Source: an uncultured Methanosarcinaceae archaeon
GTDB taxonomy: Archaea; Halobacteriota; Methanosarcinia; Methanosarcinales; Methanosarcinaceae
Direction: 5' to 3'
Assembly: GCA_963721455.1 (NCBI GenBank)
Contig: CAVRJG010000041.1
Coordinates: 32,001 to 96,000, forward strand
Length of the DNA: 64,000 nt
The position numbers and the translations under genes are program-made. The notes beneath the pieces are model-generated. The model saw only the letters and a list, made by a program, of their open reading frames with translations. It did not search any database and was not told where the DNA came from. This document shows, piece after piece, positions 1 through 41,648 of this stretch (the stretch's first letter is position 1; each line of letters starts with the position of its first letter).

Positions 1-84
1 TTGGAGTGCTTATGGTGATAAATTTATGGCAAAAAGAAGATTGAAGTTTCCATCAGTTATGATGACATTCCTACGAAACTAGCT

Positions 85-534
85 TGTAAATTTATTCGGA
101 AAGATTCTGAATTCCTACAGGAACAAGTTATCAAACAAACAATTAATCTGTTATACACAAATGAGTTTAAAGGCCCTCTTGAAGAATTCCAAGAAGCTTT
201 GGATCATTACATGTTGAAACAGTATGAAGATACAATTCATAAGTCAAATAAGGCATTTGAGAGCACAATGAAATCTGTTTTAACGAAACTAAACATTAGT
301 TTCAGCCCAGATGATACTGCCGAAACGCTTTTAGAACGGCTAATAAAAAAAGAATTCATTTATAAATATACAAAGTCCTTATTTATGGGTCTACCTATGA
401 TAAGGAACAAACAAGGTGGTCATGGACAAGGAATAGACCCTAAAGAAGTTAATCAAAGTTATGCAGAGTTGACATTAAACTTAGCTGGAACATTTATTGT
501 GTTTCTGGTAACCAGATATCAAGAATTGAAATAA
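85..534 (+). pseudogene. 5'-truncated Abi_C-like / STM4504-CBY_0614-like protein fragment
   Basis: Frame 1 is open from ~22 and reads KFIRKDSEFLQEQVIKQTINLL..EEFQEALDHY..KAFESTMK..LPMIRNKQGGHGQG, resembling abortive-infection C-terminal domains; in-frame TGA TAA at 16-21 and no good start. Confidence 0.5.
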
Positions 535-696
535 TTAGTTTTAGTCAATATATGACTCTGTTTCAAAATCTAGTGATTAATCATTGAGCGTGAAGCTTTT
601 ACAACTCCTGTTTTCAGGCAAGTCTAACTTTTTGGGAGCCAATTAGAGGTTTCAGTGAAATTTTAAGGACTTATGTAGCTTAATGTGCAAAATGAA

Positions 697-741
697 GCCT
701 TCACACGGCGGAGGTCCTGAGTTCGAATCTCAGCGGGCCCA
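697..741 (+). repeat. tRNA-Val(CAC) 3'-half copy 1 (att-like site)
   Basis: GCCTTCACACGGCGGAGGTCCTGAGTTCGAATCTCAGCGGGCCCA: anticodon loop CAC, T-arm CTGAG-TTCGAAT-CTCAG and acceptor 3' strand; no D-arm or 5' strand upstream. Confidence 0.9.
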
Positions 742-854
742 CTCTTCATTTTTGTCTTTATTTTTGGTCTTAAGAGTATATAGAACACCTTTTCTGACTT
801 TTTGAAAAAACAAATTAGACCAGATTATAGAATCCTATCAATCACAGCTAAAAC

Positions 855-1205
855 TTACTTTTTATAACCAAACTTTTTATCGTACTTTTTATGATCAATT
901 ATGTCAAGAACTAATACAATTATTTCAATACCTGAACTTCCTGCTGTAAGCGTGTAAAGCATCCTCCAGAAATTAGGGAGTTCCACTCTAAACAGATTCG
1001 TTATTTCATATTTGGTTTTGTATTCGGCAGGAATCAGTTTTTTGGCAATTGGTTGCCCATAGTGGATATTCTCCTTTAGAAGTTCCACTTTCTGAAGGAA
1101 AGCATTAAGGATTATCTCTTCCTGCTTTGATTCTGGTGCCTTACTCAGGAGAGAATTATATGCATTTGCGGCCTCCGGGGTCAGGATCACTCGAACAGAT
1201 TTCAT
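855..1205 (-). CDS. putative RelE/ParE-like toxin
   Basis: 116 aa, basic, NLFRVELPNFWRMLYTL..VLVLDIIDHKKYD pattern; start overlaps the upstream stop by 4 bp (ATGA). Confidence 0.55.
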   Translation of the reverse strand: MKSVRVILTPEAANAYNSLLSKAPESKQEEIILNAFLQKVELLKENIHYGQPIAKKLIPAEYKTKYEITNLFRVELPNFWRMLYTLTAGSSGIEIIVLVLDIIDHKKYDKKFGYKK

Positions 1206-1480
1206 AGTTCAAGTCCCTGAACCACTGCCTTTCTCAGGTTTTCATTCCTGCTGTGAATCCAGGTTACTCCCTTAAGCCCGACAGCAATTTTATTGCTCTG
1301 CTCCAGATAGTCCAGAATAACCATCAGAGTATTATGATTTACCTGTCTTGGCAACATTTTTTTGAGTTCAGCAACTGTTACAACGCTGTTAGGGCTGTTT
1401 TTCAGAGTGTCTTCGACCATAAGAATAGTATTAAGAGTTGGGGAAGGCTTTGCTTTATCAGAACTTAGTGCTTCTGCCAT
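1202..1480 (-). CDS. winged-helix protein, putative antitoxin
   Basis: 92 aa, VAELKKMLPRQVNHNTLMVILDYLEQSNKI wHTH-like; translationally coupled to the toxin-like ORF. Confidence 0.55.
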   Translation of the reverse strand: MAEALSSDKAKPSPTLNTILMVEDTLKNSPNSVVTVAELKKMLPRQVNHNTLMVILDYLEQSNKIAVGLKGVTWIHSRNENLRKAVVQGLEL

Positions 1481-1548
1481 TTATATTTCTCCAGTAGATT
1501 TGTAACAGTTTTAACGTTTCGCTTTTCAGAGATGATTGCGTAATAAAA

Positions 1549-1566
1549 AGTTATTGATTAATAACT
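1549..1566. promoter_or_regulatory. palindromic operator candidate upstream of the TA-like pair
   Basis: AGTTATT-GATT-AATAACT, perfect 7-bp arms, ~70 bp upstream of the wHTH start. Confidence 0.4.
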
Positions 1567-1810
1567 AATTGATATTTACAGATACTTATGTTTTCCGGAG
1601 TAAGATTTTTTGGGTTATTTTAATTTTCACTTATCAGAATATAGAAAAAGTTAGAGTAAGAAAGAGACAACAAACGATTGTTAATATGGCACTTCAAATC
1701 AATTAATGAATTTTTGTTTAGTAACTAATTTTGAAACTTGTCTTTTAACCTTGATAATAAAAAGGCGGTGAAAACAAAAAATATAAGGGAGTAATACTAT
1801 AGAAAGATTT

Positions 1811-4101
1811 ATGATAAGTATTAAACCTAGTAATTTTTTTATTTCTCTACTTTTATTTATATTGTTTTCTTCAGCAAATTGTTCAGGTGCAATTATCAAT
1901 GTAGGCCCAGGAACTTCCTTTCACCCTACAGGCTCAAACGACGAAACTGTTATTAACGCTGCCATACAATCAGCGAATTCAGGTGACACTGTACAGCTTG
2001 CATCAACCACATTTCACATAAGTTCACCCATAATCATGAAATCAGGGGTAACTCTTAACGGAAATGGGATTGGTGCGACAGTAATCTATTGTGACAATCC
2101 TGGCTCTAATTTTGCAACTAAAAATATTATTAACTGTGAAGGTATTTCTGATATTGAAATTTCAAATTTCTTAATTGATGGTGGTTGGGAATCATTAAGC
2201 GTAATGCATGCAGCAAGCAACAAGTATAGGGAGTATGAAAAAGGAGTTTATTTGGCTGGATGTTCAAATGTAGTTATTCACGACTTAAAAATGCAATACA
2301 GTATGGGTGACTTTATTATCTGTAAAAAAAATACCAGCAATGTTCAAGTTTATAATACAGTGTGTAAACCTGGTCATGACAGTTTTGATGCATGGTCAGC
2401 CGGTAATGGAATTTCAATATTTAATAATTGCTGGGGCACTTTTATAAATTCTTGCATTAAAATTCATAATACGAAAAACGTTCAAATTTACAAGAATACT
2501 TTCTATACCGACACTGGTTCTGGCAATGCTGGTGTAGAAGTAATGGGAGGTAATGTAACAGGCCTTAATATTTGTAATAATATATTTTCAACACTTCAAT
2601 TAAATACAATTTATCAAGACCTCAGCTGATGGTGCTTGTTCAGGCAGAGGTACTGTTTCAAATAATATATTCTATAACAGTCCTGCATATAATGGAATTA
2701 GTGGTATGAATATTAAATCAACTGGCAATATAGTAACCAGCTCCTATTCATGCTCCAGGGGTACAAAAGATTATGGATATGTTGCAGACAATGGTACAAG
2801 AAATTTGCCTGTTTACAATGGTTCCGTGGTACCTTCTGTTACTTTTCCAACTAATTGCAGTACAATTTCAACTGTTAACGGATATGTAAGTATAAGCTGG
2901 ACATATTTAAATGCAACCAGTTATTCTATCAATGTATATAATAGTACATCAAAATTCGATTCTTCTCACTTAATATATAGTCTTAACACTTCACAAACAT
3001 CTGCAAATGTACCAATTAAGCTACAATGGATCGTTTGCTATAAGAATCGGTGCACATGATGACGTTCATAATTTGTGGGTATACAACAGTCCTGTAAGTT
3101 TGTTCACAGTAAGTGGCAAAAAATCGGCTACAGTTTATTCCGGTATATTTGGATATTTAACAGATGCAACTACAGGTCAACCTATTCAGAGTGCTGTAAT
3201 AACATTATCAAATAATACGTGGAATTGTACTCAAATTACTGATGTTGATGGGCTTTACCAATTCACTTTGAACAGTGGAAAAGGCACGTATTGTTTAACT
3301 GCTTCAGCAACAGGCTATCTTAACAGTCCTGAATTACCAGTAAATATGACAGGTATAAATACAGAAATGAATTTGAAAAGGACTGAAGCACCTGATTATT
3401 GTGCACCACACTATGTACAATTATATGTTTCTACTGATTCAAATGAGAGGATTCCTGGGTGTGAGGTTCAGATTTATGCACCAAATAATGACCCACGTAA
3501 TGAAAAACCGAATTTTTGTGCCTGGACAAATAAAGACGGTAGAGCAAGTTTCCATTTGACTCAAGATGTCACATATAAAATTGTAACAATTACTCTAGAT
3601 GGACAAAAGTACACCAGCACATTGACACCTGATCTGGATCAATATACCATTACAATACCTTCAGGTGCCACATCTGAAATACCTGCAATGAAGACTGTGA
3701 TCAGTGTAAATTGCACATATAAACAGATAAACAATACAGCAGCTTATATTAATGCAAGCTATTGTGATTCTTCATCACAGTCCAGCAACCTGACTTTTGT
3801 ACTGGGTACTATGAGTGATGGAAAAACATTTGTACCTTGTGGAATCTCAGGTACTAATGACAACGTAAGTAACCCTATAGGAGTGGTAACTGATTCTTTT
3901 ATAGTCACTAACTACCCTGGAAAAACATACACTGTGAGAATTACTGCGCAGTCTCAAACTTATGGTACTGTATGTGATACTGTTAATGTATCATTTCCAG
4001 GTAGTAATGTACTATATGCAGGGTCTAATATGAATTATTTCTGTGTTTTAATCTTAATTATTGCAGGACTGATATTGTCAAAAACTCGTAAGGCACATTA
4101 A
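1811..4101 (+). pseudogene. frameshifted secreted surface glycoprotein (right-handed beta-helix + carboxypeptidase-regulatory-like Ig domains + C-terminal TM)
   Basis: Three consecutive ORFs (1811-2629, 2706-3059, 3007-4101) give signal peptide, pectin-lyase-like repeats, TDATTGQPIQSAVITL..TDVDGLYQF and a hydrophobic C-terminus; breaks near 2600 and 3020. Confidence 0.65.
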
Positions 4102-4231
4102 TCATCTGTGCCTTATTATGAATTTTTCATTTTATGGAACAGTGTTCTGGTGATTTGATTCCTCATTTAATGAGATAGAAAGGTCTACAGCATTTGGCTC
4201 GTCGATAACGGTGCAGATGTCGCATGTTCCA

Positions 4232-4276
4232 GCCTTCACAAGGCGGAGGTCCTGAGTTTGAATCTCAGCAGGCCCA
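4232..4276 (+). repeat. tRNA-Val 3'-half copy 2 (att-like site)
   Basis: GCCTTCACAAGGCGGAGGTCCTGAGTTTGAATCTCAGCAGGCCCA, 3 mismatches to copy 1. Confidence 0.88.
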
Positions 4277-4284
4277 TTTTTTAT

Positions 4285-4455
4285 TATCCTTATTTTCCGA
4301 TTCTAAGTGCGTAAAGAGCTTTTTTCCAGATGTTCAACTCTTGATTCGAGGTCAGCTTTTTCTTTTGTTGATCTTTATACTCGCTTCGAATTGTGAGCAC
4401 TTTTGAAGTCTCCTGTGTTGCAATGTCAAGTTTTTCTTGGAGATTCCTGCCAGCT
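4285..4455 (-). pseudogene. eroded C-terminal tail of a convergent gene (probable integrase)
   Basis: Minus strand reads ..NLQEKLDIATQETSKVL..ADLESRVEHLEK.. across frameshifts; homologous to the tails after copies 1, 3 and 4. Confidence 0.5.
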
Positions 4456-4600
4456 CATCTCTGTATTAATCCCGAGAAGCATAACATTTCAGTTAATATC
4501 TCATCAGGCTGAACTTCTCGTGGATCATTAAGATATAGCTCATGTACAGGACCAGCAATTCTTTTTCCACATCGTTTTGCGTTTTTCTGTATCTTATTTG
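4455..4600 (-). pseudogene. GyrI-like domain fragment
   Basis: IAGPVHELYLNDPREVQPDEILTE is a typical GyrI-like C-terminal motif; the rest is missing. Confidence 0.55.
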
Positions 4601-4749
4601 CGAATTCCAAAATAACTGAATTCATCGAGCATGAAAGTTTTGCCGTTAAATTTTCTGTAAGTTTTACGTATAATACCGCCATGAGAAACTTTTGAAGCTA
4701 AATGAAAGCTGTTAAAATCACATTATTTTGCACTCTTGCTAATATATCC

Positions 4750-5154
4750 TTAAATTGCCTTAACCCACGTCCTCCCATCCCATTTTTTCCAGTGCATTAT
4801 TATCATAGCACGGTTTAACAGAAGTTCTTCTCCCGAGTCAATGAAATCGTTTCCATTCTTGAGCCCATGTTCGAAAGTATATCTAAGGCGTCCGGAATAC
4901 CATTCTAAAAACTGTAAGAATGCTTCGAATTCCGATATCTTCAGATTCTGCATAAAGAATTCAATGCATATTTTTTGTAGCTGGTCCTGTCTCGGTAGCC
5001 AGAAATAATTAATTGAGTTATTTCCGGGATAGAGTAAAACCTCAACTTCTTCAGAAACAGGATTATAAACAAAATCTCCTGGTTGGAAAACCCATTTTCT
5101 TTGAATTTCCTTCGCTGATTCGCACATTTTGATATATTTTTCTGATGTATCCAC
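4750..5154 (-). CDS. hypothetical protein
   Basis: 134 aa ORF with GAGG RBS; MDTSEKYIKMC..WLPRQDQLQ..KKWDG. Confidence 0.7.
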   Translation of the reverse strand: MDTSEKYIKMCESAKEIQRKWVFQPGDFVYNPVSEEVEVLLYPGNNSINYFWLPRQDQLQKICIEFFMQNLKISEFEAFLQFLEWYSGRLRYTFEHGLKNGNDFIDSGEELLLNRAMIIMHWKKWDGRTWVKAI

Positions 5155-5293
5155 TTAACCATCCTCAGAAACCATCACTCACACAACAGTTAAAAGGCAT
5201 ATCCGAGCTAACTGAAAGTATTCGATCTCAAATGGTTCTTTAATAAGTCTCGCTAAAAGAAGAACAAGCTCTATTTTCTATTCCTGCCTTCAA

Positions 5294-5530
5294 TCATCCT
5301 TGATTCTTATTTTTAAGTTTCTCAAGCAGGCTCGATGCTCTTTCCTTAGCATCCTCAGTCTCCTGCGCATCTATGTCAATGGTAATATCCAGAATGTCCC
5401 CTTCTTTACTTTCAGAGGGCAGTAAAAAAAGAGGGATATTGATTTTAATTGTTTCTTTATCCCTCACAAGCAAGACCGCAACGCCTTCTTCGATCCTGTC
5501 TAATGTAACTTTAAAACTCTCCATAATCAT
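5294..5530 (-). CDS. DUF3006 family protein
   Basis: VTLDRIEEGVAVL..LLPSESKEGDIL motif; 4-bp overlap with the MBL gene. Confidence 0.85.
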   Translation of the reverse strand: MIMESFKVTLDRIEEGVAVLLVRDKETIKINIPLFLLPSESKEGDILDITIDIDAQETEDAKERASSLLEKLKNKNQG

Positions 5531-6813
5531 CTATCCAGTTTTGAGACCAGCTTTCCACTATCATCGTAGAGAGATGCTGTGTCACCACCGTTGTTCCATA
5601 TAGGATTGTCTAATTGCCAGTAAAGCTCAGTAGCTGAGTTTGTGCCCTTTCCAGTAAATACAGTTACGGTGGTTCCTGCATTCAGGGTGTAAGACAGAAA
5701 CGTATAGGTATGTTTATTGCCTTCATCTTCAATTTTCCAGCCGTTCAAGGAAACTGGAGAAGACCCCGTGTTTGATATCTGAACCCATTCATCTTGAAGA
5801 TTCAGGTCGCTCACATAAACAGTCGATTCCGCAGAACCTGGAGTTTTCGACTCTTTAGTTGTTGAATCTGTAGAAGTGTAAGCTCCGCTTCTACTGGAGA
5901 TAGTCCCGGTTTTTTCAGTTGTTACAGTATAAGTTGATCCGTCTGTTGTAACTATGATTGTGCCACCCAGATCCGTTCTATATACTGTTGAAGCCTTCTG
6001 CAGTCTATCAAGGATCTCATCATGAGGATGCCCATAGTCATTTCCTGCTCCAACTTCGATTATACTTACTTCAGGACTTACAGCTGAAATAAAGGCTTCT
6101 CCGCTGCCGGATGTGCTTGCATGATGTCCGACCTTAAGGATATCAGAATCTACATCGTACCCAGCTTCCATTATGTTTTCCTCTGATTCCAGACCTGCAT
6201 CTCCCATGAGCAAAAACGAAGTGTCGCCATACGTTACTTTGAGAACCACGGAGTTTTCATTCAGCTCGTCGGAGTATGCGCTTGCAGGATTCAGCACTTC
6301 GATATCAACAGCAGGGTCAAAATCAATTGTCTGACCAGCCCTAACTACCTCAAAAGGAATATTCTTTGTATCAATAGTGGTCAGCATATTCTCGTAAGTT
6401 TTAGAAGTATGAGGGTATCCACTGTCAACAAAATGTTCTACCTGGAAGTTGTTAAGAATATCGTTCATCCCGCCGATATGATCAGAATGCGGATGAGTTG
6501 CAACTACATAATCCAGTGTTGAAATTCCCTGGTCCTGCAAGTAAGCTGTGACAACTTTTCCCTGGTCACTTTCTCCTGAGTCAACTAACATGGATTTTCC
6601 ATCAATCTCCAGGAGGATTGAGTCTCCTTGACCAACATCCAGGAAATGCACTGTAAGGTTCTGGCCTGATTGAGTGACGGTATTTTGAGTAGTTGTAGGA
6701 CTCGTTTGTTCCGAAGCTGTTTCAAAAGGAGTTTCTTTTGGATCTGTACATCCGGCTGCAATGAGTACCAGGGTCAGGCAGAAGATTGTGGCAGTCAGTT
6801 GTGAGGGTTTCAT
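5527..6813 (-). CDS. ComEC/Rec2-like MBL-fold hydrolase lipoprotein with C-terminal lamin-tail domain
   Basis: Lipobox IAAGC; FLDVGQGDS, THPHSDHIGG, LKVGHH, NDYGHPH; LTD motif EWVQISNTG..LNGWKI..IWNNGGD. Confidence 0.9.
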   Translation of the reverse strand: MKPSQLTATIFCLTLVLIAAGCTDPKETPFETASEQTSPTTTQNTVTQSGQNLTVHFLDVGQGDSILLEIDGKSMLVDSGESDQGKVVTAYLQDQGISTLDYVVATHPHSDHIGGMNDILNNFQVEHFVDSGYPHTSKTYENMLTTIDTKNIPFEVVRAGQTIDFDPAVDIEVLNPASAYSDELNENSVVLKVTYGDTSFLLMGDAGLESEENIMEAGYDVDSDILKVGHHASTSGSGEAFISAVSPEVSIIEVGAGNDYGHPHDEILDRLQKASTVYRTDLGGTIIVTTDGSTYTVTTEKTGTISSRSGAYTSTDSTTKESKTPGSAESTVYVSDLNLQDEWVQISNTGSSPVSLNGWKIEDEGNKHTYTFLSYTLNAGTTVTVFTGKGTNSATELYWQLDNPIWNNGGDTASLYDDSGKLVSKLDR

Positions 6814-7292
6814 TAATATATTAATGCGTCAGAGGTATTAGAAACTTGCATTGAGCTCTCTTAAAACTTATTTTGTTCTTAAAAGCTACAAAGATGAAAA
6901 TTAAAACCAAAAAGGAGTGCTTTAGACTTATATTTTTAGAATTCTATTCGATCTCAAATCCTTCTATACTAATGCAAGTGGTCTACCTTTTCTTCTCTTG
7001 CATTCTATAACTACAGAGATCTTATGGATGTAAAAAAGTTACAAACTATATTGTATGGATATTGGGAAATTCATTAACTCGTGGTAGCGGATAGCGAGAT
7101 TAGCCTTTAAGTCTCAAAACTATTGATTTTCTAACCTCCTATTTACAATGACAGCCAACAAATATTGAACGTTTAATTGGTCTCCCCCACCCACACGGCT
7201 TATTACGGATTATCTTCTCATTACTCGCCGACGCAGATTCGGCATAATAGTCTTCCTTTCTTCATCAGGATCTAAATATACTTTGCACAGTT

Positions 7293-7323
7293 GAGGTCCT
7301 GAGTTCGAATCTCAGCGGGCCCA
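7293..7323 (+). repeat. tRNA-Val 3'-end copy 3 (31 bp, att-like site)
   Basis: GAGGTCCTGAGTTCGAATCTCAGCGGGCCCA, identical to the last 31 bp of copy 1. Confidence 0.88.
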
Positions 7324-7326
7324 CCT

Positions 7327-7465
7327 ACTTCTCTTTTTTGTCATTATTTCCTGATTCTAAGAAAACATATACCTCTTTTTCTAATGCTTTAATCAGTGCT
7401 TCAAGGTTAGATTTTTTTCTTCTGGTTGTGCAACTTTGTTCGCCATTAAACTCTTCATCAAGGGA
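7327..7465 (-). pseudogene. eroded convergent gene tail (probable integrase)
   Basis: Minus strand LDEEFN..KVAQPEEK..SNLEALIKALEKEVYVFLESGNNDKKEK*. Confidence 0.5.
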
Positions 7466-7803
7466 AAGCGCATAAATAGGCTTTGTACTCTATATAGTTA
7501 TTGTTATATCTATATAGTTATATTGAAAAATGTGGGCTTAATGCCTCTATTGACAGATTGTAAGCTTTATAGATATTATTTAGGTAAACGGGACTTTAAA
7601 AGTCCTCTTAATCAGATAGCTCTTTTTGATGTGTAAGTGAATAAATAAACGCCTGTTTTATCCCGAAATAATTTCTCTCTTTGAAATTCTTATCTTACAA
7701 TTATACTCAGGTACAGACGATGAACACAAGCCCCTGATATACTATTGAAAATTTATTTATGTGTTGGAGTTTATATTATAGGATTAAAGGATTATAGGAG
7801 ATA

Positions 7804-7995
7804 ATGCGAATGGATGCAGCAACACAACATAAAATAGATGATAAACTGAAAGCCATACAGGCGAATGAGAAGAAGATAAGGGACGAGACTAAGAAAAAGG
7901 GCGAAGCTGAGAAAAAGATAAAAGAGTACAATGCAGCTAATGGTGTGCTTAGAAAAGAAATCAGTAAGTTAAAGGAAGAATCGAGCAAGAAGTGA
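7804..7995 (+). CDS. small Lys/Glu-rich coiled-coil protein
   Basis: GGAG RBS; 63 aa ending KEESSKK; shares upstream sequence with 8414-8656. Confidence 0.6.
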   Translation: MRMDAATQHKIDDKLKAIQANEKKIRDETKKKGEAEKKIKEYNAANGVLRKEISKLKEESSKK

Positions 7996-8413
7996 TAAAC
8001 AGGCTAAGCTTCAGTTAAGTAACTCCCCAAACCGCAAACTGGCAGGCAGGCATCATAAGTAATTAATCAAACATAATAACGTATTTACATATGTAAGTCG
8101 TATCATTATTCATGAAACTTGTCGATTTTTCTAATAAGTATAATAATTTTAAAACCCGGCTTGATGTTAATGTAACTTCGCTCAGTAACCATTTCAGTGA
8201 CTCCCATAATGTCGAAACACTTGGTGTTACGCTAGCTACTGTGGGTATATTATGTTATTACATTCTTCAAAAAATTCAGGAACGAAATAAAGGCTAGAAA
8301 TAAAAGCTAAACCACAATCAACCCCAAGCCAGCCCTCTCTCCACAATTGAAAATTTATTTATGTGTTGGGGTTTATGCATTATACTAAGTAAAAAGTAAT
8401 AAGAGGTGAAATA

Positions 8414-8656
8414 GTGCAAGCAGTTGCAGAAAAGCAGATAGAAGTCAAGAAAAAAGAATTAGAAGCTGTGAGGAAAGAGTTTGCTAAAAAAGAGGATGAA
8501 TTAAAACGACTAGAGGCAGAGAAGAAAATTGCAGATCATAGGCAAAAAGCGGAACTTAATAAACAGGTACAAGCAATTACAAATGAGTTGAAGAATATGA
8601 GTGAAGCCCTCAAAAAGATGGATAAATCCGTCAAAAAAAGGGAGAGTAAGAAATAG
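8414..8656 (+). CDS. small Lys/Glu-rich coiled-coil protein
   Basis: GAGGTG RBS, GTG start; 80 aa ending KKRESKK. Confidence 0.65.
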   Translation: MQAVAEKQIEVKKKELEAVRKEFAKKEDELKRLEAEKKIADHRQKAELNKQVQAITNELKNMSEALKKMDKSVKKRESKK

Positions 8657-8920
8657 GGGCTATCTTTTATTAGCGTGCCTATCCCAAAAGACGGTGAACG
8701 TCTTTGCACGTACAACCTGTCATAACGACATACAAAATACCGTTCATTAACTTTCTCATATCTGCACGTGGCCTTCCTGTGTGTGGTTTTTGTGGAGGAA
8801 GATAAGGTTCTATGGATTTCCATAGAACCTCATAGATTTCACGGAATGACATAAAAGTAAATTTATAATTCCAACATAATCTTAGTTTCGGGATAAGCTC
8901 AATTTTAGAAATTCATTATT

Positions 8921-9376
8921 TCATCGTTGTACATTAATATGCATTACTGCTTTGCTCACTTGACCCTCAGCGTTTTTTATTCTTAAATAAACTTTATACC
9001 TTCCTGGTTCTTTGAATGGATGTACAGGGTTCTTCAAAATTGATGTAGTTTTATCTCCAAAGCCCCAGAAGTATGTAAGTCGCCCATATTTCTTACCCCA
9101 TATGTATGGAACTGGTTTCCCGATACTCGTATCTGTGAATCTTATTGTCAATGGTCTATTTGGGTCATGAGTTGCAGTAAAAGCAGCAATAAGATTTGGG
9201 GCAACGACTTCAGGGTTAGATTTAATCGTTGTTGTATCATACATTGTTGTATCATACATTGTTGTATCCGTATTTGTATCGTCATTCGCAAGTGCTGCAA
9301 TTGCAGTCACAGATAATAAAATAATACTGATTAAAACTATACCTATTGTTTGCTTTAGTTTCATATGATTCCCCAC
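8921..9376 (-). CDS. secreted PKD-domain protein
   Basis: Signal peptide; FTDTS..WGFGDKTTS..NPVHPF.EPGRYKVYL; internal 15-bp DTTMY tandem repeat. Confidence 0.8.
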   Translation of the reverse strand: MGNHMKLKQTIGIVLISIILLSVTAIAALANDDTNTDTTMYDTTMYDTTTIKSNPEVVAPNLIAAFTATHDPNRPLTIRFTDTSIGKPVPYIWGKKYGRLTYFWGFGDKTTSILKNPVHPFKEPGRYKVYLRIKNAEGQVSKAVMHINVQR

Positions 9377-9893
9377 CTTAAATTTTCTTTATAATCAGTA
9401 CTTACTGTTCCTTTTTTACGGTCTTGCCATTTGTCAATTTTAATTTAAACAATTCTATTTTATATAAGTTATCAGCCGGATAAGAATTGTTGCACAAGTG
9501 AAGATTACAAAATACAGTAGAATAAGAGTATTTTTGCACAATCAGCAGAAAAGGTATATAAGCTGTTAGACATGTGGAGTTAGTTCTGAGGTAACATTCA
9601 ATTCTGTGAATTCATGGATGAAAGGATATATAACTGCTCTCCAAGAAATTGAAAGTAAATATACTCTATACATTCTTAAAGAATAAACTGTGCAGATGAT
9701 TGAGACTCTCATCTGGACAGCAATATTGATATTCTCCGCATGTAAACAGATAAAGGTTTGTTATAAATGGTTGAATACGAAATAAAGGAATTTAATCAAA
9801 ATGAGTAATGGGGAAGGGACTGATCATATACTCCTTTCCCTTCATTTTGACAAAACACATACTAAATTATAATAAAATTAAACAATAAATATA

Positions 9894-10023
9894 GAGTTGG
9901 TACCAAAACTCATTTTCAATCCTGGTCAATGGGATTTTTAGGATTCCTTTCACGATCTGAAGCTCGATTGGTCACTTGAAATGCGGGAACCGGAGAAGTA
10001 AATTTTGAGTTTTGGGATGAGCT
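9894..10023. mobile_element. MITE (~130 bp) whose right terminal repeat is interrupted by IS1
   Basis: Left end GAGTTGGTACCAAAACTCA matches the reverse complement of the right end TGAGTTTTGGGATGAGCT(C); non-coding interior. Confidence 0.65.
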
Positions 10024-11186
10024 GATGGTCCATCTTTATCCGATTGATGTTTTAAAACACCTGAATGTCAGCAGTTCCTTTAAAGTCCATTTTGACTTCG
10101 CAATTCCTGCCTCTCTCGCAGGTGTATTTTTGCATTCAACCCCTCTTTCATCTTTGTACTTTAATCCTCCATGACCTCTACAGAAGTTAAAATGCGTGCA
10201 ATAGAGCTTCATTTGGCTTTCTAACCACTCTTTCGCTTTTGAAAACCCTATTGTTTTTCTTGAAACTCTGTTGTTATCCTGCCTAAAAGTCAGGTTTTGT
10301 CTTTCAAGTAAAGTTGTTGAGATTTCGCTTTGTTCAATGTCTTCTCCAAAGATGATTTTCTTCTCTACTTTCTCAAGTACTCCATTTACTCTAGTTTTGA
10401 CTACCTGTGCATACTTCAAATCATCAGAGGGAACGATTTTTGGTTTCCTTGGTCTTCCTCTTTTCCCAGTTCTTGGAAACTCTCTCAAAACTCCAAATTG
10501 TTTTAATAGAGCTTCCCTATAGAATTTCAGTCCATCTGTGACAAAAAGAGGGATTTTATCTGAAAGATGTTTATCGATTAATTCAACCAGCTTGTCTGCA
10601 ACATACTGTTTTCTTGGACCTATTATAAAATCAAGTATTAGCCTACAACCTGGTACAAAAGCTACCCACATCCAGGGCCCATCGTCTTCATAATCTTTCA
10701 TTCTTGGAACTATTTTTTTTGGATTATAATCCATAATTCGTCCATTTCTACCTTTGACACATCCACGTTCTTCATCAGAGTATCATTTACTTTATCGCAT
10801 TGTTCAGCTGCACGAGCTAACCATCGTTTTACACTGGCAGATTCTACCTCTAAAACATCGGCAATGGCTTCGATGCTCATTCCTTTCATAGACATCTTTA
10901 AAGCTAAATCGATAGTTTGCTCATCTTTGCGAAGATCATGATAAAAAGTGCCTGTATGGTCATTGAATACTTTGCCGCAGTGGCGGCAAAGATATCTTCT
11001 TGTTTTTTCTCCACGGCTTATGTAAGTTCCATTTCCAATAACATTGCCTTGATTAGTAAGCCCATAGAGCTTACAGTCTTTATTCGGACAGGCAACGTTA
11101 ATGAATTGTGGTTTTGGACCTCTTTTCCCCATAATATAAACATAGGATTCTCATATATAATATCAATCAGATACAAATTGACTATC
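10024..11186 (-). mobile_element. complete IS1-family insertion sequence (1163 bp)
   Basis: Imperfect ~25-bp TIRs GATGGTCCATCTTTATCCGATTGAT / GATAGTCAATTTGTATCTGATTGAT; 8-bp TSD GATGAGCT at 10016-10023 and 11187-11194. Confidence 0.9.
10036..11132 (-). CDS. IS1-family transposase, InsA (Zn-ribbon/HTH) + InsB (DDE) joined by a -1 frameshift
   Basis: CPNKDC..CRHC + HTH + EMDELW; A8 tract at 10713-10720; downstream FVTDG..LERQNLTFRQ. Confidence 0.88.
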
Positions 11187-11562
11187 GATGAGCTCATAAT
11201 TTAAAAATCCACATGGTAGCTTAATGCACCATAAGTTAACAGTTTATTAACAGGTATGAACCGTCCAGCCTGAGCTAATAGATTAACAGTCCACGAATAA
11301 TGCCCTGTTCATGGATTTCTTGCATGTGGTCAGTTCAAATCCTTCAAATTATGAAAGTTACTTTATAAAAAAGAAAATTCCATCAAATTCGTATTTCACC
11401 TAATTTCCATACATTAGCAAACAAAAGCTCATAAGCTAAATTGATTTGGATTACGTCTGAGTTATGTTAGACAATATTCTTACTCTTAATGAATCCTGTC
11501 TATTGATATCGATTTATCCATTCCGTCTGACTTGTCTACTATTTTTGCCCCTTTCTTTCATT

Positions 11563-11718
11563 CAGTCTTTTGATGCTTTTTTAAGATTCTCAAGAATGCT
11601 TGATACGCTCTCTTTTGCATCCTCTGTCTCTTTTGTATCTCTGGAAATGGTAATATCCAGAATGTCCCCTTCTTTGCTTTCAGCAGGCAGTAAGAAAAGA
11701 GAAATCTTGATTTTAATT
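11563..11718 (-). pseudogene. DUF3006 C-terminal fragment (copy 2)
   Basis: Minus strand IKIKISLFLLPAESKEGDILDITISRDTKETEDAKESVSSILENLK, nucleotide-similar to 5310-5450. Confidence 0.8.
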
Positions 11719-11998
11719 GCCCCATTATATTAGTTTCGGGATAGGCTCATTAGAAAAAGTAGGGTTATATGATAATATAATTGAAATGAAAATTGTAGGA
11801 TGCCCGAAAAATTATGAAGTAATAGAGACAGAGAAGAATGTGGCTGATAGTATTAAAGAAGGAATTATGTCGTTCCTTGGTATTATAATTTTTATATTGC
11901 TGATAATTTCTGTCGCATAAATGATATACTATGGTGCACCTACCGAGGATCTTTTTGAACCATAAATGATGATGGGATTTTATTCCTTAAAAACTGGG

Positions 11999-14311
11999 TT
12001 ATATTAGAAAAATGGAATGTTGTTTCAAATTAGCTACTGGAAATAGTGGTTCAGGTTCTGGGATGATTGCAATTCCCCCAGGAGAGACCTCGATATTCAC
12101 TGTTGCTGAGACAGTATCGTTTGAGGTGTCAATTACAGAAATATTGTTGCTATAATTGTTTTCATAACTGCCCTTGACTACCACGTATACCTTTTTTCCA
12201 TCAGGTGTGACTGCAATTTCTTTAGGATACTTTCCTACATTCAATGTGGTTACAACTTTTCTTGTAGATGTATCAATTACAGAGACAAAGCCATCTTCGC
12301 CAGCCACATATACTTTTGTTCCTGTTGGATTGACTACAACTTCATTGAGGTCTTCTTCTTACATCCACCGTAGCTATAACGGTATTTGTAGCTGTATCAA
12401 TGACAGAGACATAGTAGTAGGTTGTCACATATACCTTTGTTCCATCAGGTGTGACTGCAACTCCCCAAGGATGTTCACCTACAGGTACTGTAGCTATAAC
12501 AGTATTTGTTGCAGTATCAATTACAGATGTGGTATTGCCAGGGATAGAAAAGTTGCCATAGTTAGTCACATATGCCTTTTTTCCATCTGGGGTTACTGCA
12601 ATTCCCATATGGGTATTTCCTACAGGCACAGTGGCTTTAACAGTGGTTGTGTCAGTGTCAATTACAGAAACATTATTGCTGCCACTATTAGTCACATATA
12701 CCTTTTTTCCATCAGGACTGATTGCAACTCTATAGGGATCAGATCCCACTTTCACAGTGTCTGTAACAGTATTTGTTGCAGTATCAATTACGGAGACATT
12801 AACGCCCCAACGGTCAGCCACATATGCTGTTTTTCCATTAGGTGTGACTGCAATTCCATAAGGCCCACGTCCTACTTTCACAGATGTTATAACTAATCCT
12901 GTGGCTGTATCAATTACAGAGAATGCACCATCATTCGTAATGTATACAAATGGCCACGTGGATGAAACCCTTTTTTCAACGCTTATGTTAGCAAGTTTGG
13001 AATTAGTATTGAGTCCATTGCTAGCTGTCAAATTAACTGTATAGTTTCCTGAAGTCTTGTACGCATATACAGGATTTTGTTTTGTGGAATCTAATACCCC
13101 ATCACCATCAAAGTCCCAGTTCCACACAACTGCGTTTTTTGAAAGATCTGTAAACTTAACAACAAGAGGTGCAGTACCGTTAGTGACACTGGCTGTAAAG
13201 TTAGCAGTTGGGATAACTGAATTTTGAGACTGGACATCGATACAAGAGGTAAATAGTCAAATTTGTCCTCATAGACGTTATAAGGATCCTCATAGATTTT
13301 ATAAGGCAGGTCTCCAATCCCATTTCCATCCAAATCCACGCAGATCTGGGAGAATCCAGTTCCATCTGGCTTTGCCCAGAAGTTGCCTCCGATGTAAGGG
13401 CCACCGACAATATTACTGCCTGAAGCAAGTGAACTGTTCCAGGTATTTCCCCCTTCACAAGGTCCAAACCTTACGTTTAGACTATTGTTAAAATAATTAT
13501 TGTAGATTTTTTCTACGACCATTATTTTCTTTATCAAAAATCCCGCACTCTGCACAGGACGTTATTGTATTGTTGATTATACCAACATCACAACCATCTT
13601 CTAATTCAATCCCTACATTACAGTTTAATATTGTATTATTGTCAATTACTGAACTTGTTTGGGCAAGCTAATTCCATAATCGCAGTCAGTAATCCTGTTA
13701 TTACGAATATCTGCCAGCCTGATCCCATTCAGTAATACCAGTGGAGCAATTTGAGATTGTATTACCTGATACTGTATTATTTATTCCACAGCAGTCAATA
13801 AATATACCTTCTTTGCCGTTAGAGATTTTGTTTTCGGCTATTAAATTACCTGATATCTCGGATCCCAGAAGTAATAGAACCATTTTCAATGGTATTACCT
13901 GTCACATTATTCATATCGCCATAAACGTTGATTGAACCGTTTTCATAACCCTTACTGGCTCCTGTTATATTTAAACCACTGATCGTTGTAGCATTAGCTG
14001 TTATCAGAAAGGTACTTTCACTTTCATTCAGCGGTTTTACCTGCACATCTCCATTGTTTGATTCTGACCTGATAGTTAGACCTTTTACATTGACAAGAAC
14101 GTTTTCAGTATAAGTTCCAGACCTCACGATTATTATGTCCCCTGTTACAGAATTATTCACAGCTTCCTGAATTGACACGAAATCAGCTTCAGAATTATCA
14201 TCTACCGTAATTTCCCTTGCTGATGCAGTAGCTGACATGGAAACTAAGAAAATCGAAAATCAAAAATGTTGAAGTTAATCTTATTGAGCATAGCTTCTCT
14301 TTATTCCTCAT
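11999..14311 (-). pseudogene. frameshifted Methanosarcina surface protein (NosD beta-helix + PKD + YVTN beta-propeller)
   Basis: Fragments REITVDD..FVSIQEAVN, GGNFWAKPDGTGFS, WNWDFDGDG and repeated AVTPDGKKVYVTN..VSVIDTATNTV spread over at least 5 frame segments; ATG at 14311 after GGGG. Confidence 0.85.
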
Positions 14312-15070
14312 TATTCCCCCAAATGAATTTATTTAATCTTTAACAAATAAGCCTTAATATTACTCATTATTCTCTATTTGTATTAAGAAATTGGAATAAA
14401 GAAAAAAAGAAGAGAAAGTTTACTTTTCCAATGCTCTTATAGTTAAACAGGTATCTGAAAGGCAAAAAATATATCTTTCAAATCTGACAAAAACAAGGTA
14501 AATTCACCCGACGGTTAGATTTGATAATTGACTCTCTACTTGATTCTGATTTACTCTGGTTTATTTTTTCCTTAAAAATCCGAGAAACATATTCCTAAAA
14601 GCCATATTATATTCAACCTGAAAGAGGAAAAGGTAGTGGTAATTGATATGAACATATCTGTATCATGCCTGTTACTGGAAACTACCCCCCTTTTGAAAGT
14701 TCAGAATGGAAATGCGTATATCCCTGTCCTGATTATTTCGTGCAAAAAAGGTAATGCCAACCATAGGGGAATTATTAATCAAAATTAATTTTAAGTTCAT
14801 CACTAGATTTTGGCATTGTGTCAAAAAAGCAAAGGATTAATATGCCTCCATGGGCTAATTGTAAGCCATATTGTCCTTTTTTTTGAAATTGGCGCTCTAA
14901 ATCCCTTTTGAGATATGAAACTAAATTAAAGTAAAACTAATTTTGCCAATAATAATGTTTAAAATAGGTCTTTTTTGAGGTCGGGTCGATTGACCCGCTA
15001 TTATTTCGTGTCAGCTGGGACCGGCGTTCTGCTATCGGAACTGCACCCTTTTTCTGAATCGGAGGCTAAA

Positions 15071-15117
15071 TCGCCTTTACATGATGGAGGTCCTGAGTTC
15101 GAATCTCAGCGGGCCCA
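15071..15117 (+). repeat. tRNA-Val 3'-half copy 4 (att-like site)
   Basis: TCGCCTTTACATGATGGAGGTCCTGAGTTCGAATCTCAGCGGGCCCA; anticodon position reads TAC. Confidence 0.88.
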
Positions 15118-15124
15118 CTTTTGT

Positions 15125-15245
15125 TTTTTCCGATTATAAGAGCTTATAGAGCTTTTTTTCCAACTGCTCAATTCTTGCTTCAAGGTCAGATTTTTCTTCG
15201 GGTTGTATAACTTTAAGTTCACAGTTAAGCTCTTCTTCAAGAGCA
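15125..15245 (-). pseudogene. eroded convergent gene tail (probable integrase)
   Basis: Minus strand LEEELNCELKVIQPEEKSDLEARIEQLEKKLYKLL*. Confidence 0.5.
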
Positions 15246-15288
15246 ATTAAATAAACAGGTTTACTATTTTACTAAGAGGAAAACAACA

Positions 15289-15873
15289 ATGACTGAAATG
15301 ACTGAAAAAGAAAAAGCATCCCAGGCTTTATTATTTAATGCAATTTATGATAAAGAGCTGAATGATGAACGAGATTATTGTAAAGCACTTTGCTACGAAT
15401 ATAATCAGCTTCATCCCGCAAAAATTGGGGAAAGGACATCTTTAATTCAGAAACTTTTTGGCAAAACCAGGGGCTCTTTTCTTATTGAGCCGCCATTTAT
15501 ATGCGACTACGGTTACAACATCAAAATAGGAAGCAATTTCTTTGCAAATCACAACTGTATCATCCTTGACGGAGCAAAGGTTGTTTTTGGTGATAATGTG
15601 ATGATTGCTCCACACTGTGGCTTCTATACAGATGGACATCCGCTTGATGCAGAACGTCGTAACGCAGGACTGGAGTATGCTTATCCAATTAAAGTCGGCA
15701 GCAATGTATGGATAGGCGGTAATGTTGTCGTACTGCCTGGGGTAACTATCGGAGATAATACTGTTATCGGAGCTGGAAGTGTTGTGACAAAAGATATTCC
15801 GCCTGGCGTTGTTGCCGTTGGGAATCCTTGCAGGGTTATTCGTGAGATTATCGATGAAGATAAGAAGTTTTAA
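15289..15873 (+). CDS. maa: sugar (maltose/galactoside) O-acetyltransferase
   Basis: IEPPFICDYGYNI, hexapeptide repeats, VWIGGNVVVLPGVTIGDNTVIGAGSVVTKDIP. Confidence 0.9.
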   Translation: MTEMTEKEKASQALLFNAIYDKELNDERDYCKALCYEYNQLHPAKIGERTSLIQKLFGKTRGSFLIEPPFICDYGYNIKIGSNFFANHNCIILDGAKVVFGDNVMIAPHCGFYTDGHPLDAERRNAGLEYAYPIKVGSNVWIGGNVVVLPGVTIGDNTVIGAGSVVTKDIPPGVVAVGNPCRVIREIIDEDKKF

Positions 15874-16026
15874 TCCTTATTTTTGTGAGTCTGGCTCTCG
15901 AATTTAAATGTAAATCAAAAATATGTGCATTACAGTCTCAATTCAACTACTATAACCCAAGCTATTATCAAAGAAACAAATCTAATAAACCGTTTGATTT
16001 CGCTCTGTGAATCTTTTTTTAAGCTT

Positions 16027-16142
16027 CTAAATTACTATTTTCTCAATTACGGATAACACTCTCCCTATTTCATACTCTGTTTCTTTTATACTTCTGACAA
16101 TGGTAATATACAGAATATTTTCCTTCTCTGCTTCTATACAGC
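16027..16142 (-). pseudogene. DUF3006 C-terminal fragment (copy 3) abutting the last att-like site
   Basis: EKENILYITIVRSIKETEYEIGRVLSVIEKI aligns with SKEGDILDITIDIDAQETEDAKERASSLLEKL. Confidence 0.55.
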
Positions 16143-16186
16143 CCTTCATACGGCGGAGGTCCTGAGTTCGAATCTCAGCGGGCGCA
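16143..16186 (+). repeat. tRNA-Val 3'-half copy 5 (outermost att-like site, island boundary)
   Basis: CCTTCATACGGCGGAGGTCCTGAGTTCGAATCTCAGCGGGCGCA; followed by a T-rich tract and the housekeeping gene ppa. Confidence 0.88.
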
Positions 16187-16321
16187 CTTCTGTTTTTACA
16201 GATTCCTTTTTTCAAATTCCGCATTATTTTTAGTAAAGTATACTTCCAGGCAGTATACTTTTTACGTCCCCCCAGCCGTAAAAACAAAATGAAAACTTTT
16301 TGATCACACTCACTGATTAAA

Positions 16322-16819
16322 TTATTTCTTTTGCTCAATGTATCGGGATTTAGCTTCCTGAAGTATAGTGACTGCTGTTTCGAGGCCTTTCCAACCGAAA
16401 ACGTTCACGTGTTTGCCCTCTAATTTCTTGTAATTTTGGAAGAAGTGAGTAATTTCCTTAAATAGATGAGGCGGAACATGGTCAACGGTCTCAATATAAT
16501 TCCACATGGGATCATTCTTTGGAACGCAGAGTATTTTTTGATCTCTTCCTTTATCATCTTCCATGTCAAATAGTGCCACAAGATGTACGTCTATTACACA
16601 ACCTGGAAAGGTAGGTTCCCAGGTTAAAACCATAGCATCTAAAGGGTCACCGTCAAGGGCCAGGGTATCGGGGAAAAAACCGTAATCTGAAGGATATACC
16701 ATTGAAGAAGAAAGCATTCTGTCGTATTTAATCACTTTCTTTTCTTTATCATACTCGTATTTATTTCGGCTTCCTTTTGGAATCTCGATAAGTACACTTT
16801 CAACCTGTCGTTCAGTCAT
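16322..16819 (-). CDS. ppa: inorganic pyrophosphatase (family I)
   Basis: EIPKGSRNKYEYD, YPSDYGF, DGDPLD, DQKIL. Confidence 0.95.
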   Translation of the reverse strand: MTERQVESVLIEIPKGSRNKYEYDKEKKVIKYDRMLSSSMVYPSDYGFFPDTLALDGDPLDAMVLTWEPTFPGCVIDVHLVALFDMEDDKGRDQKILCVPKNDPMWNYIETVDHVPPHLFKEITHFFQNYKKLEGKHVNVFGWKGLETAVTILQEAKSRYIEQKK

Positions 16820-17084
16820 GCAAGAACTTCCTGCTTATTGATAGTTATTATAATACTGTTTCTTAATGATTGCAACTATTTATGCGCTCATAGATTATGT
16901 GTCCTGACAGGGTTATACTATTAAAACATGACCTCATGTGTTAATTTTCTTGACATCTGAAAGGAGAGATACAGGAAAATTGATTTGAAATATTCTTTTG
17001 GTACCTTTGATAAGAATGAGGTAAGATAATGTGCAACCTCTGCATCTGCAATCACATTGTGTTCATCGGGAAATTTTTAACAAT

Positions 17085-41467: not shown

Positions 41468-41564
41468 TTAACAATGATACTTCACAAGGATATTGAAATG
41501 TCCTTTCTCTTTTAAATAGTTAACGGCAGGAAACAGGTTTCACATACCGAAATGTAAAGAGAAG

Positions 41565-41648
41565 CGCCCAGGGCAGGATTTGAACCTGCGCTCTCCCAAA
41601 GAAGAAACGGTTTTCGAGACCGTCGCCTTACCACTAGACTACCTGGGC
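41565..41648 (-). tRNA. tRNA-Ser(CGA)
   Basis: GCCCAGGTAGTCTAGTGGTAAGGCGACGGTCTCGAAAACCGT, long variable arm, GGTTCAAATCCTGCCCTGGGCG. Confidence 0.96.

Follow-up and report, generated by a model that had tools for sequence, protein, structure and literature searches.

In streptococci, cis-mobilizable elements (CIMEs) and islands of the ICESt1/ICESt3 type include remnants without integrase and transfer genes, flanked by attachment sites (att), that accumulate in tandem at one site and that a related active element could in principle mobilize. Suicidal integrases of the SSV/pT26-2 type have been studied mostly in hyperthermophiles. The parts of Badel et al. 2020 (PMC7253208) and of a 2021 review (PMC8371274) considered here define SSV-type suicidal integrases by an integrase gene that is split at att. 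There, Badel et al. 2020 state that these enzymes have never been observed to integrate in tandem or more than once at a single site (0 in 73 elements, among them 5 mesophilic Methanosarcinales integrases in the cluster), predict that a tandem would rebuild the integrase gene, and argue that it should be unstable. Here, we describe a locus at the beginning of a 64,000-nucleotide stretch from an uncultured Methanosarcinaceae archaeon (GCA_963721455.1, contig CAVRJG010000041.1, positions 32,001 to 96,000; hereafter the window), in which five partial copies of a tRNA-Val(CAC) gene divide an AT-rich region into short modules. We read it as the product of pT26-2/SSV-type suicidal-integrase plasmids that accumulated in tandem at tRNA-Val(CAC) and then decayed, and put the probability of this reading at about 0.85. 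Throughout, G000 is the present genome, other G numbers are genomes of relatives, and L numbers are fetched loci (L007 is from G012, L016 from G007, and L023 from G025).

The att copies all lie on the plus strand and were located with an nhmmer profile. They span 696-743 (copy 1), 4231-4278 (copy 2, with two mismatches in a 31-nt core), 7280-7324 (copy 3, the left third of which is diverged), 15072-15119 (copy 4), and 16143-16188 (copy 5, with one core mismatch). Repeat search groups them as one family of five direct repeats with start-to-start spacings of 3535, 3047, 7794, and 1069 nt. Alignment to the tRNA shows that each copy comprises 46-48 nt of tRNA-Val(CAC), beginning in the anticodon loop (CAC) and ending at the discriminator base. 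The copies are nearly invariant over their right ~31 nt and variable over their left ~15 nt, as expected if the left part came from the attP arm of each element. With up to three mismatches allowed, the window contains the 31-nt core (GAGG...CCCA) five times, always on the plus strand, against 0.00 expected by chance (it is present in none of 100 dinucleotide-preserving shuffles). In a genome-wide fuzzy search, a 33-nt version of the core has six copies on the contig of the array, and elsewhere matches only the three other tRNA-Val genes and, with three mismatches, two places on contig C64. ARAGORN, run on the whole contig, places an intact tRNA-Val(CAC) at C41:29300-29374, 2.7 kb upstream of base 1 of the window, and finds no tRNA-Val within the window itself. 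Upstream of the intact tRNA lie ordinary chromosomal genes that are conserved in relatives. An earlier note, drawn from the letters of the window alone, had recognized the five same-strand 3′-halves, the AT-rich character of the region (GC 0.33-0.41 over 1-19 kb), and the lack of both an intact tRNA-Val and an integrase in the window, and these observations hold. It suggested looking upstream for the intact tRNA and an adjacent tyrosine integrase; the tRNA is there, and no tyrosine-recombinase match is found anywhere on the contig. Its count of four modules becomes five, since an intact tRNA and five partial copies together delimit M0 to M4, with M0 lying between the intact tRNA and copy 1. 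The sole tRNA gene of the window is a minus-strand tRNA-Ser(CGA) at 41564-41648, no repeat of which was noticed in a repeat scan of 1-20 kb.

The full integrase gene is found at the same tRNA in relatives. Loci of tRNA-Val(CAC) were taken from 20 of the 58 other genomes of the genus, chosen as closed or long-contig. In G012 and G007, the interval from tRNA to repeat is ~15.5 kb long and ends in a minus-strand open reading frame (ORF) of 297 or 298 aa that begins 7 nt from the repeat and matches PF16795, "Archaeal phage integrase" (E 2e-36 and 1e-39). The reading frame stays open across att in L007 and L016 (...GPAEIRTQDLRRVKA|SF...), and also in L023. At the opposite end of the element in G012 and G007, a minus-strand ORF of 113-115 codons enters the tRNA gene and stops there. 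Together, the frame that is open through att and the ORF that runs into the tRNA indicate that attP lies inside the integrase gene and that integration splits this gene into an N-terminal part, Int(N), on the tRNA side of the integrated element and a C-terminal part, Int(C), on the side of the distal repeat. No Pfam domain was found in Int(N). The closest plasmid gene is that of the pT26-2 integrase, t26-1p, of Thermococcus (34% identity, 88% query coverage, E 1e-35), and the closest viral integrase belongs to an Archaeoglobus profundus pleomorphic provirus (41%, 1e-43); further viral matches include TPV1, annotated as "SSV1-type integrase", and many SSVs. The closest PDB entries are 3vcf, 4dks, and 3uxu ("Probable integrase", E 3e-5), with the R...R...R...Y motifs aligned; we take these entries to be the SSV1 integrase. 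The features of an SSV/pT26-2-type system found at these loci are the PF16795 catalytic domain (in relatives), attP inside the integrase ORF, and a tRNA target with a distal 3′ repeat. The same integrase family is also located at tRNA-Val(UAC) in two relatives. Of the two integrase-bearing elements in G012 and G007, one carries DUF927 with a Cch-type helix-turn-helix (HTH) as its replication genes, and the other a primase-polymerase/D5-type helicase along with a type III restriction-modification pair and IS21. By their gene content, these elements look like integrative plasmids.

G000 itself retains only fragments of this integrase, the full domains being those of relatives at the same tRNA. 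The fragments are nevertheless placed as a split gene predicts, on the minus strand and against the att copies (all by tblastn). An Int(C) scar of M0 at 580-704 reads through att copy 1 and covers residues 1-15 and 24-41, with 67% identity over 15 aa and 89% over 18 aa to the L007 integrase; its DNA is 81% identical to the integrase 5′ end and att of G012. The Int(C) scar of M1 (4144-4239, residues 1-31) was found with the L016 integrase at 56% over 32 aa. On the other side of the repeats, Int(N) scars open M1 (693-851, residues 62-114; 45% over 53 aa, E 2e-6), M2 (4231-4359, residues 70-113; 52% over 44 aa), M3 (7277-7483, residues 47-111; 48% over 69 aa, E 1e-12), and M4 (15089-15268, residues 45-105, with an in-frame stop; 57% over 63 aa, E 3e-14). 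The conserved motif seen in a DNA alignment to the right of the repeats is this Int(N) coding remnant. After the intact tRNA and after att copy 5, tblastn finds no Int(N) scar, and only the att-encoded part matches; at att copy 3, the frame through the repeat meets a stop immediately. Pfam scans find neither an integrase nor a replicase in any module of G000. M0 to M4 thus resemble CIMEs, in that they are att-flanked, are devoid of recombination and replication genes, and bear scars showing derivation from a full element. The earlier note had proposed that a tyrosine integrase targeting a tRNA gene left the repeats as duplications of its att site, and that the modules are stacked and non-autonomous; both points are borne out by the scars and by the split integrase genes of relatives. 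Its further proposal that the modules are primary integrase-less cassettes gives way, because the scars mark them as deletion derivatives of integrase-bearing plasmids of about 15 kb, a kind of element still present in relatives.

On tandem accretion and decay, the history of the locus would run as follows. With attP inside the integrase frame, around codons 98-113 of about 410, each integration would regenerate the tRNA, leaving an Int(N) that reads into the tRNA on the proximal side and Int(C) followed by a copy of the tRNA 3′-part on the distal side. Repeated insertion, into the regenerated tRNA or into any att copy, would stack at least five elements head to tail, and a sixth, older module would probably hold ppa, the pyrophosphatase gene beyond copy 5. 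Later deletions would have stripped integrase and replication genes from every element in G000, leaving short Int(N) and Int(C) scars, debris (M3), and intact cargo under purifying selection, namely an acetyltransferase, a protein with a metallo-beta-lactamase fold and a lamin-tail domain (MBL-LTD), surface proteins, and a NERD-like ORF. We infer this order of events, and deletion as the cause of the decay, from the scars and from the architecture in relatives. The array is presumably static now because no cognate integrase is present in the genome, while its six att sites would still be landing pads.

The enzyme is indeed missing at the level of the whole genome. PF16795 has 0 matches at E<=10 in G000, an assembly of 73 contigs that is 98.5% complete by marker genes. 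The classical tyrosine recombinase domain, PF00589, has eight matches in G000, none of them on the contig of the array. These eight recombinase-like ORFs were considered as the source of the array's enzyme and rejected: tblastn against the 20 relatives' loci gave no match, which places the integrase in another family. The absence also bears on the suggestion in the earlier note that the array is an archaeal integron analogue, that is, a dedicated platform on which one integrase captures, excises, and shuffles primary integrase-less cassettes at sites made of tRNA fragments. Short att-bounded units with unrelated cargo, and one single-gene unit that recurs at differing positions, are what such a platform would display. 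The integrase is, however, neither beside the array nor anywhere in G000, so that no resident enzyme serves it, and the integrase scars derive the modules from self-sufficient elements. The sites are double-strand tRNA-type att cores within an integrase ORF, not folded sites of the attC kind; cargo ORFs lie on both strands across the array with no common promoter apparent; and many rearrangement breakpoints fall away from the repeats. Of four integron features examined, three fail, and we consider an integron analogue highly improbable.

Stacking at this tRNA is common across the genus, which favors tandem accretion. All 59 genomes of the genus, G000 included, have tRNA-Val(CAC), and in 18 of the 21 loci (G000 and the 20 relatives) at least one extra att copy lies within 19 kb. 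Extra copies number 44 over the 21 loci, with a maximum of five at any one locus, and all lie on the strand of the tRNA; in G011, one of the three loci without an extra copy inside 19 kb, the next copy is at 20.4 kb. Seven of the 59 genomes carry full PF16795 catalytic domains (E<=1e-36), at nine places altogether, and 23 of the 59 have a match when weaker or fragmentary ones at E<=1e-3 are included. A wider scan, with two conserved integrase peptides as queries against a single genome for each prokaryotic species, returned 16 loci, most of them labeled Methanosarcina (including M. hadiensis and M. barkeri), four Methanolobus, and a few otherwise-labeled metagenome-assembled genomes. In 15 of these 16 integrase loci, Int(C) has an att immediately 5′ of it, and in at least seven of the 16 the Int(C) frame runs on into the Int(N) remnant of a neighboring module, meaning that the integrase-bearing element there stands in a tandem array. 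In G025, two consecutive elements at tRNA-Val(UAC) share a junction frame of 410 codons with PF16795 (L023 10870-12102), made up of the distal element's Int(N), att, and the proximal element's Int(C). A stop takes the place of the native start codon and the first available start yields 367 aa, and this junction frame is probably not functional as it stands. Separately, a 6.8-kb locus without tRNA from Methanolobus sp. WCC5 (L047) has a 373-aa ATG ORF with PF16795 at 2764-3882 that spans att. This ORF may be an entire integrase gene restored where two elements meet, or else a variant of the family whose Int(N) is shorter.

How the modules differ among genomes speaks to whether the array decayed in place or its parts have moved. 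The extreme of in-place change would be a purely vertical history, in which the ancestor of the genus already had the complete array and all differences are deletions. Several findings fit deletion. A segment we call X, which forms a 1.7-kb module in G001, matches at 96.5% identity the distal kilobase of an element in G011 that is 19.3 kb long and retains a full Int(N), and X suggests in this way that a small module can derive from a large element. In G000, X is interrupted: its two pieces, 850-1610 and 4455-4569, are separated by other cargo (Y), att copy 2, and an Int(N) scar, with breakpoints at 1610/4455 that lie away from the repeats. The MBL segment is common to genomes only as an internal piece of 1.6-1.9 kb within differing flanks, and in three relatives (L008, L010, and L011) adjacent modules are fused and the att copy between them is deleted. 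The order M3-att-M4 is syntenic between G000 and G045, the closest relative examined. Breakpoints at the repeats, for which the earlier note had proposed a comparison of strains, are seen for one module, that of the acetyltransferase, and not for X, the MBL segment, or the att-less fusions. Against a purely vertical history stand the order of modules, which varies among species (the acetyltransferase precedes MBL in G022, G057, and G006 and follows it in G000), the restriction of M0 to G000 among the 21 loci, and the divergence of the cargo, whose number of synonymous substitutions per site (dS) is two to five times below that of flanking chromosomal genes. We therefore give this history very little credence.

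The acetyltransferase module is the clearest case of movement. It is present in nine copies in eight genomes, two of them diverged copies within G045, and the junction between an Int(N) scar, beginning at about residue 45, and the start of the acetyltransferase gene is identical in all nine, so that the module arose once. An att lies directly to its left in six of the nine copies; homology between genomes ends at the left edge of this att and, on the right, just past the distal att in G000, L002, L008, and L019. Its rank in the array differs, from fifth in G000 to third in G001 and first after the tRNA in G022. Among metagenome contigs carrying the acetyltransferase, 19 of the 80 loci kept were analyzed. 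In the 12 with a gene at least 84% identical, att or tRNA-Val(CAC) was found in 10 (to the left of the gene in nine and only to the right in L055), and the other two contigs begin inside or just before the gene. No att was found in the seven more distant loci at 81% or below (L063 and L064 at 81%, L065-L069 at 69-73%). Homologues at 62-73% are common in contigs named as gut and fermentation samples (L065-L131), and this cargo gene may have come from outside the genus. Metagenome contigs from three studies skip 178 nt (15888-16065) between the acetyltransferase stop and att copy 5, a spacer that carries differing deletions in relatives.

The dS values (NG86, G000 versus relatives) are 0.07-0.50 for the acetyltransferase, 0.29-0.42 for MBL, and 0.18-0.45 for two genes of Y. 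On the chromosome, the nearest gene upstream of the tRNA gives 0.37-1.36, ppa gives 0.45-0.88, and three other genes give 0.40-1.55, this range omitting one comparison (core516 versus G045, dS 1.46) that likely involves a paralogue at 70% identity. Compared within the same genome pairs, cargo and chromosome stand at 0.30 versus 0.88-1.55 for G001, 0.21 versus 0.86-1.46 for G036, 0.25 versus 0.59-0.94 for G022, and 0.07 versus 0.37-0.42 for G045, on a baseline of four chromosomal genes and ppa with NG86 values near saturation. The dN/dS of the cargo is about 0.1-0.4. Low dS, low dN/dS, and recurrence between att sites together argue that, as judged from sequence, the cargo is functional and moved between species after the species had split, the acetyltransferase module being integrase-less by then.

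One way to account for this movement extends tandem accretion by mobilization: att-bounded modules would be excised in trans whenever an active element of the family lands alongside, and would spread as passengers between Methanosarcina species, while tandem junctions could rebuild an integrase from the Int(N) of a neighbor and the Int(C) of a newcomer. The single origin of the acetyltransferase module, the end of its homology at the att edges, its differing positions, its company of att or tRNA in metagenomes, and cargo dS below chromosomal dS would all follow, and the 410-codon frame in G025 has the form that a rebuilt integrase would take. On the other side, that frame lacks its native start codon, G000 has no integrase to act, and no circular, composite, or helper-linked copy was found among the genome and metagenome contigs analyzed, nor any acetyltransferase copy in an element with integrase and replicase. 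Modules could also be shifted without an integrase if the conserved tRNA, att, and scar sequences recombined homologously, and the dS contrast rests on the small, near-saturated baseline given above. We regard mobilization of this kind as possible, and lean somewhat against it.

Tandem accretion and decay of suicidal-integrase plasmids remains the reading we prefer, and several observations weigh against it. No module of G000 keeps more than about 70 integrase codons, and so the origin of the modules from full elements rests on the scars taken together with the relatives. M0 has only ~28 nt past the tRNA that resemble the end of an Int(N), and tblastn with 12 integrase N-termini finds no convincing Int(C) scar at att copies 3, 4, or 5. 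None of the cargo of the G000 modules is found in the integrase-bearing elements of relatives. The assembly, at 73 contigs and 98.5% completeness, could miss a free integrase plasmid. Finally, the acetyltransferase truncation is identical in eight genomes, at differing array positions and with low dS, and its recurrence is not explained by simple decay in place. The pattern suggests, short of proof, a hitch-hiking like that of CIMEs.

The array probably continues beyond copy 5. As the earlier note had seen, the gene after the last copy is ppa, which encodes a soluble inorganic pyrophosphatase (16322-16819, minus strand; PF00719, E 5e-56) and is single-copy in G000, with one tblastn match in the genome. 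It sits between att copy 5 and a minus-strand fragment of the integrase catalytic domain at 16943-17067 (residues ~180-221; tblastn 63% over 27 aa and 50% over 24 aa, E 1.3e-5), which would mark an older, sixth module. Window positions 16894-17080 are 78% identical to the region past ppa in L012, where an att remnant follows; to the right of ppa in G000, a relaxed nhmmer search found no att remnant. The two relatives with an att remnant after ppa are G040 and G048, with an integrase fragment in between in G040, and in G013 an Int(N)-like remnant precedes ppa. In G007, the module before the conserved DUF1699 gene has an integrase fragment and a distal att, with an unrelated 300-aa ORF replacing ppa. 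Near tRNA-Val(CAC), ppa is found in seven of the 21 loci, counting G012, where it lies just past the fetched stretch; it is far from the tRNA in G001, G011, G004 (two copies), and G007 (one copy and one broken). Housekeeping ppa may thus lie inside the oldest captured module, which we offer as a lead and not as a result.

The remaining cargo is heterogeneous. M0 begins at the intact tRNA-Val(CAC) and spans 2.6 kb upstream of the window and window positions 1-695. Its 550-aa NERD-like ORF, upstream of the window, has a weak NERD match (E 5.5e-4, below the Pfam cut-off) and distant homologues in three of the 58 other genus genomes, at other loci. A truncated plus-strand gene at 199-534 corresponds to positions 170-280 of 281 in the STM4504/CBY_0614 family (DUF7014/Abi_C). 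No counterpart of M0 of at least 300 nt is present in the 20 relatives' loci. M1 holds the left piece of X on the minus strand (850-1610; ORFs 855-1205 and 1202-1480, without a Pfam match), which is 90% identical to L002 1474-2234 and there continues directly into a match to window 4455-4569; the two pieces are contiguous in three relatives (L002, L006, and L008). Cargo Y of M1 (1669-4231, plus strand) comprises, by Pfam, a pectate-lyase-like gene (1811-2629), an ORF at 2706-3059, and a CarboxypepD_reg/Big_1 surface-type gene (3007-4101). Y is 82-90% identical at the nucleotide level to L003, L015, L017, L018, and L020, and is itself an att-bounded module in L003_m2, L015_m0, L017_m0, and L020_m2. 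The cargo of M2 (4455-6813, minus strand) consists of a GyrI-like fragment that is the right piece of X (4455-4682), ORFs at 4750-5154 and 5294-5530, and the MBL-LTD gene (5527-6813). The MBL-LTD protein is intact, 428 aa long, and lipoprotein-like, with a ComEC-type metallo-beta-lactamase fold and a lamin-tail domain (Pfam, NCBIfam, and PADLOC), and its segment is 84-86% identical in L003, L010, L011, and L019, with differing flanks. A repeat of ~150 nt (81-82% identity) at window 5300-5451 and 11570-11719, and also on contigs C45 and C34, overlaps in M2 the start of the 78-aa ORF beside the MBL gene.

The body of M3 (7484-15071) is mostly gene debris by Pfam and repeat search. It includes a PKD fragment (8921-9376), an IS1-like insertion sequence (about 10024-11186; an HTH ORF and a DDE_Tnp_IS1 ORF), and beta-propeller/PKD and NosD fragments (12342-13555). 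The insertion sequence has further copies in the genome (on C15 at 92%, and on C13, C3, and others), and its metagenome-contig depth is very high. An internal repeat at 12180-12920 has five copies of a 104-nt unit spaced 126-244 nt apart (repeat family D1, 126-141 nt); lying inside overlapping ORFs on both strands with beta-propeller/PKD matches, it looks like a remnant of surface-protein repeat domains. The right part of M3 (12027-14823) is common to G045. M4 carries the intact 194-aa hexapeptide O-acetyltransferase (15289-15873, plus strand; Pfam Mac and Hexapep) of the maltose/galactoside type (NCBIfam PRK09527/PRK10092, E 1e-58 to 2e-62, below the equivalog cut-offs). Logan contigs of four metagenome runs cover the array in short pieces that are 90-99% alike, and two joints were seen among them. 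In run X3, a contig of depth 438 links window positions 578 and 14785 through one extra T and may represent a repeat or another organism; it was too weak to use, as was a single-contig joint from 746 to 4440 with 36 nt on its shorter side. A role of the cargo as a defense system was considered and rejected, PADLOC giving no match for the NERD-like ORF or the DUF7014 fragment and only generic MBL-domain matches for MBL-LTD.

The locus and its relatives thus present, in a mesophilic methanogen genus, the opposite of the published statement that tandems were never observed. They provide material for testing the published model in which tandem insertion rebuilds or hybridizes integrase genes, for studying the fixation of captured genes, among them possibly the cell's sole gene for a soluble pyrophosphatase, and for asking whether integrase-less remnants still travel. 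For annotation, they explain partial tRNA-Val "genes" and the AT-rich island beside ppa. We speculate, tentatively and considering it rather unlikely, that tRNA-Val serves the genus as a shared, open-ended platform for gene capture, with plasmids in tandem, hybrid integrases at their junctions, and single-gene modules passed between species in trans. Were that true, the platform would be an archaeal counterpart of CIME-like or integron-like cassette traffic whose site is a tRNA fragment within an integrase exon.

Among described systems, likeness to integrons is outward only and lies in an array of short units split by a repeated recombination site; the G000 array has no resident integrase, no attI/Pc, and no attC-type sites, its genes run on both strands without a uniform cassette orientation, and its units come from autonomous elements. 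The resemblance to CIMEs is closer, with the differences that the Methanosarcina system is archaeal, that its suicidal integrase gene spans att, and that mobilization here is putative. In Sulfolobus, work of She and colleagues from 2001 and 2004 is said to describe the trapping of an element through a split integrase gene, after which its genes stay on the chromosome as cargo between tRNA-part repeats; G000 differs in that it belongs to a mesophilic euryarchaeon, that its array at one tRNA is tandem and multi-copy, and that its modules are common to several species. Repeated ssrA fragments reportedly occur in Dehalococcoides islands. Those ssrA-linked islands, in the parts of McMurdie et al. 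2011 (PMC3146451) considered here, arise by repeated site-specific insertion at one small-RNA gene and carry adaptive cargo, and they differ in being bacterial, in using a conventional integrase, and in the nature of that cargo. No description of Methanosarcina tRNA-Val arrays was found in the literature searched, where supplementary tables might list some of the elements. The pT26-2/SSV1-type integrases share with the present family the PF16795 domain, attP inside the integrase ORF, and the tRNA 3′-part as target. All G000 elements, in contrast, have lost the integrase, and tandems, never observed according to the parts of PMC7253208 considered here, are the rule in the genus Methanosarcina. 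The kind of system is therefore known, and what appears to be new relative to that literature is that suicidal-integrase elements are stacked in tandem and that a single-gene remnant is conserved.

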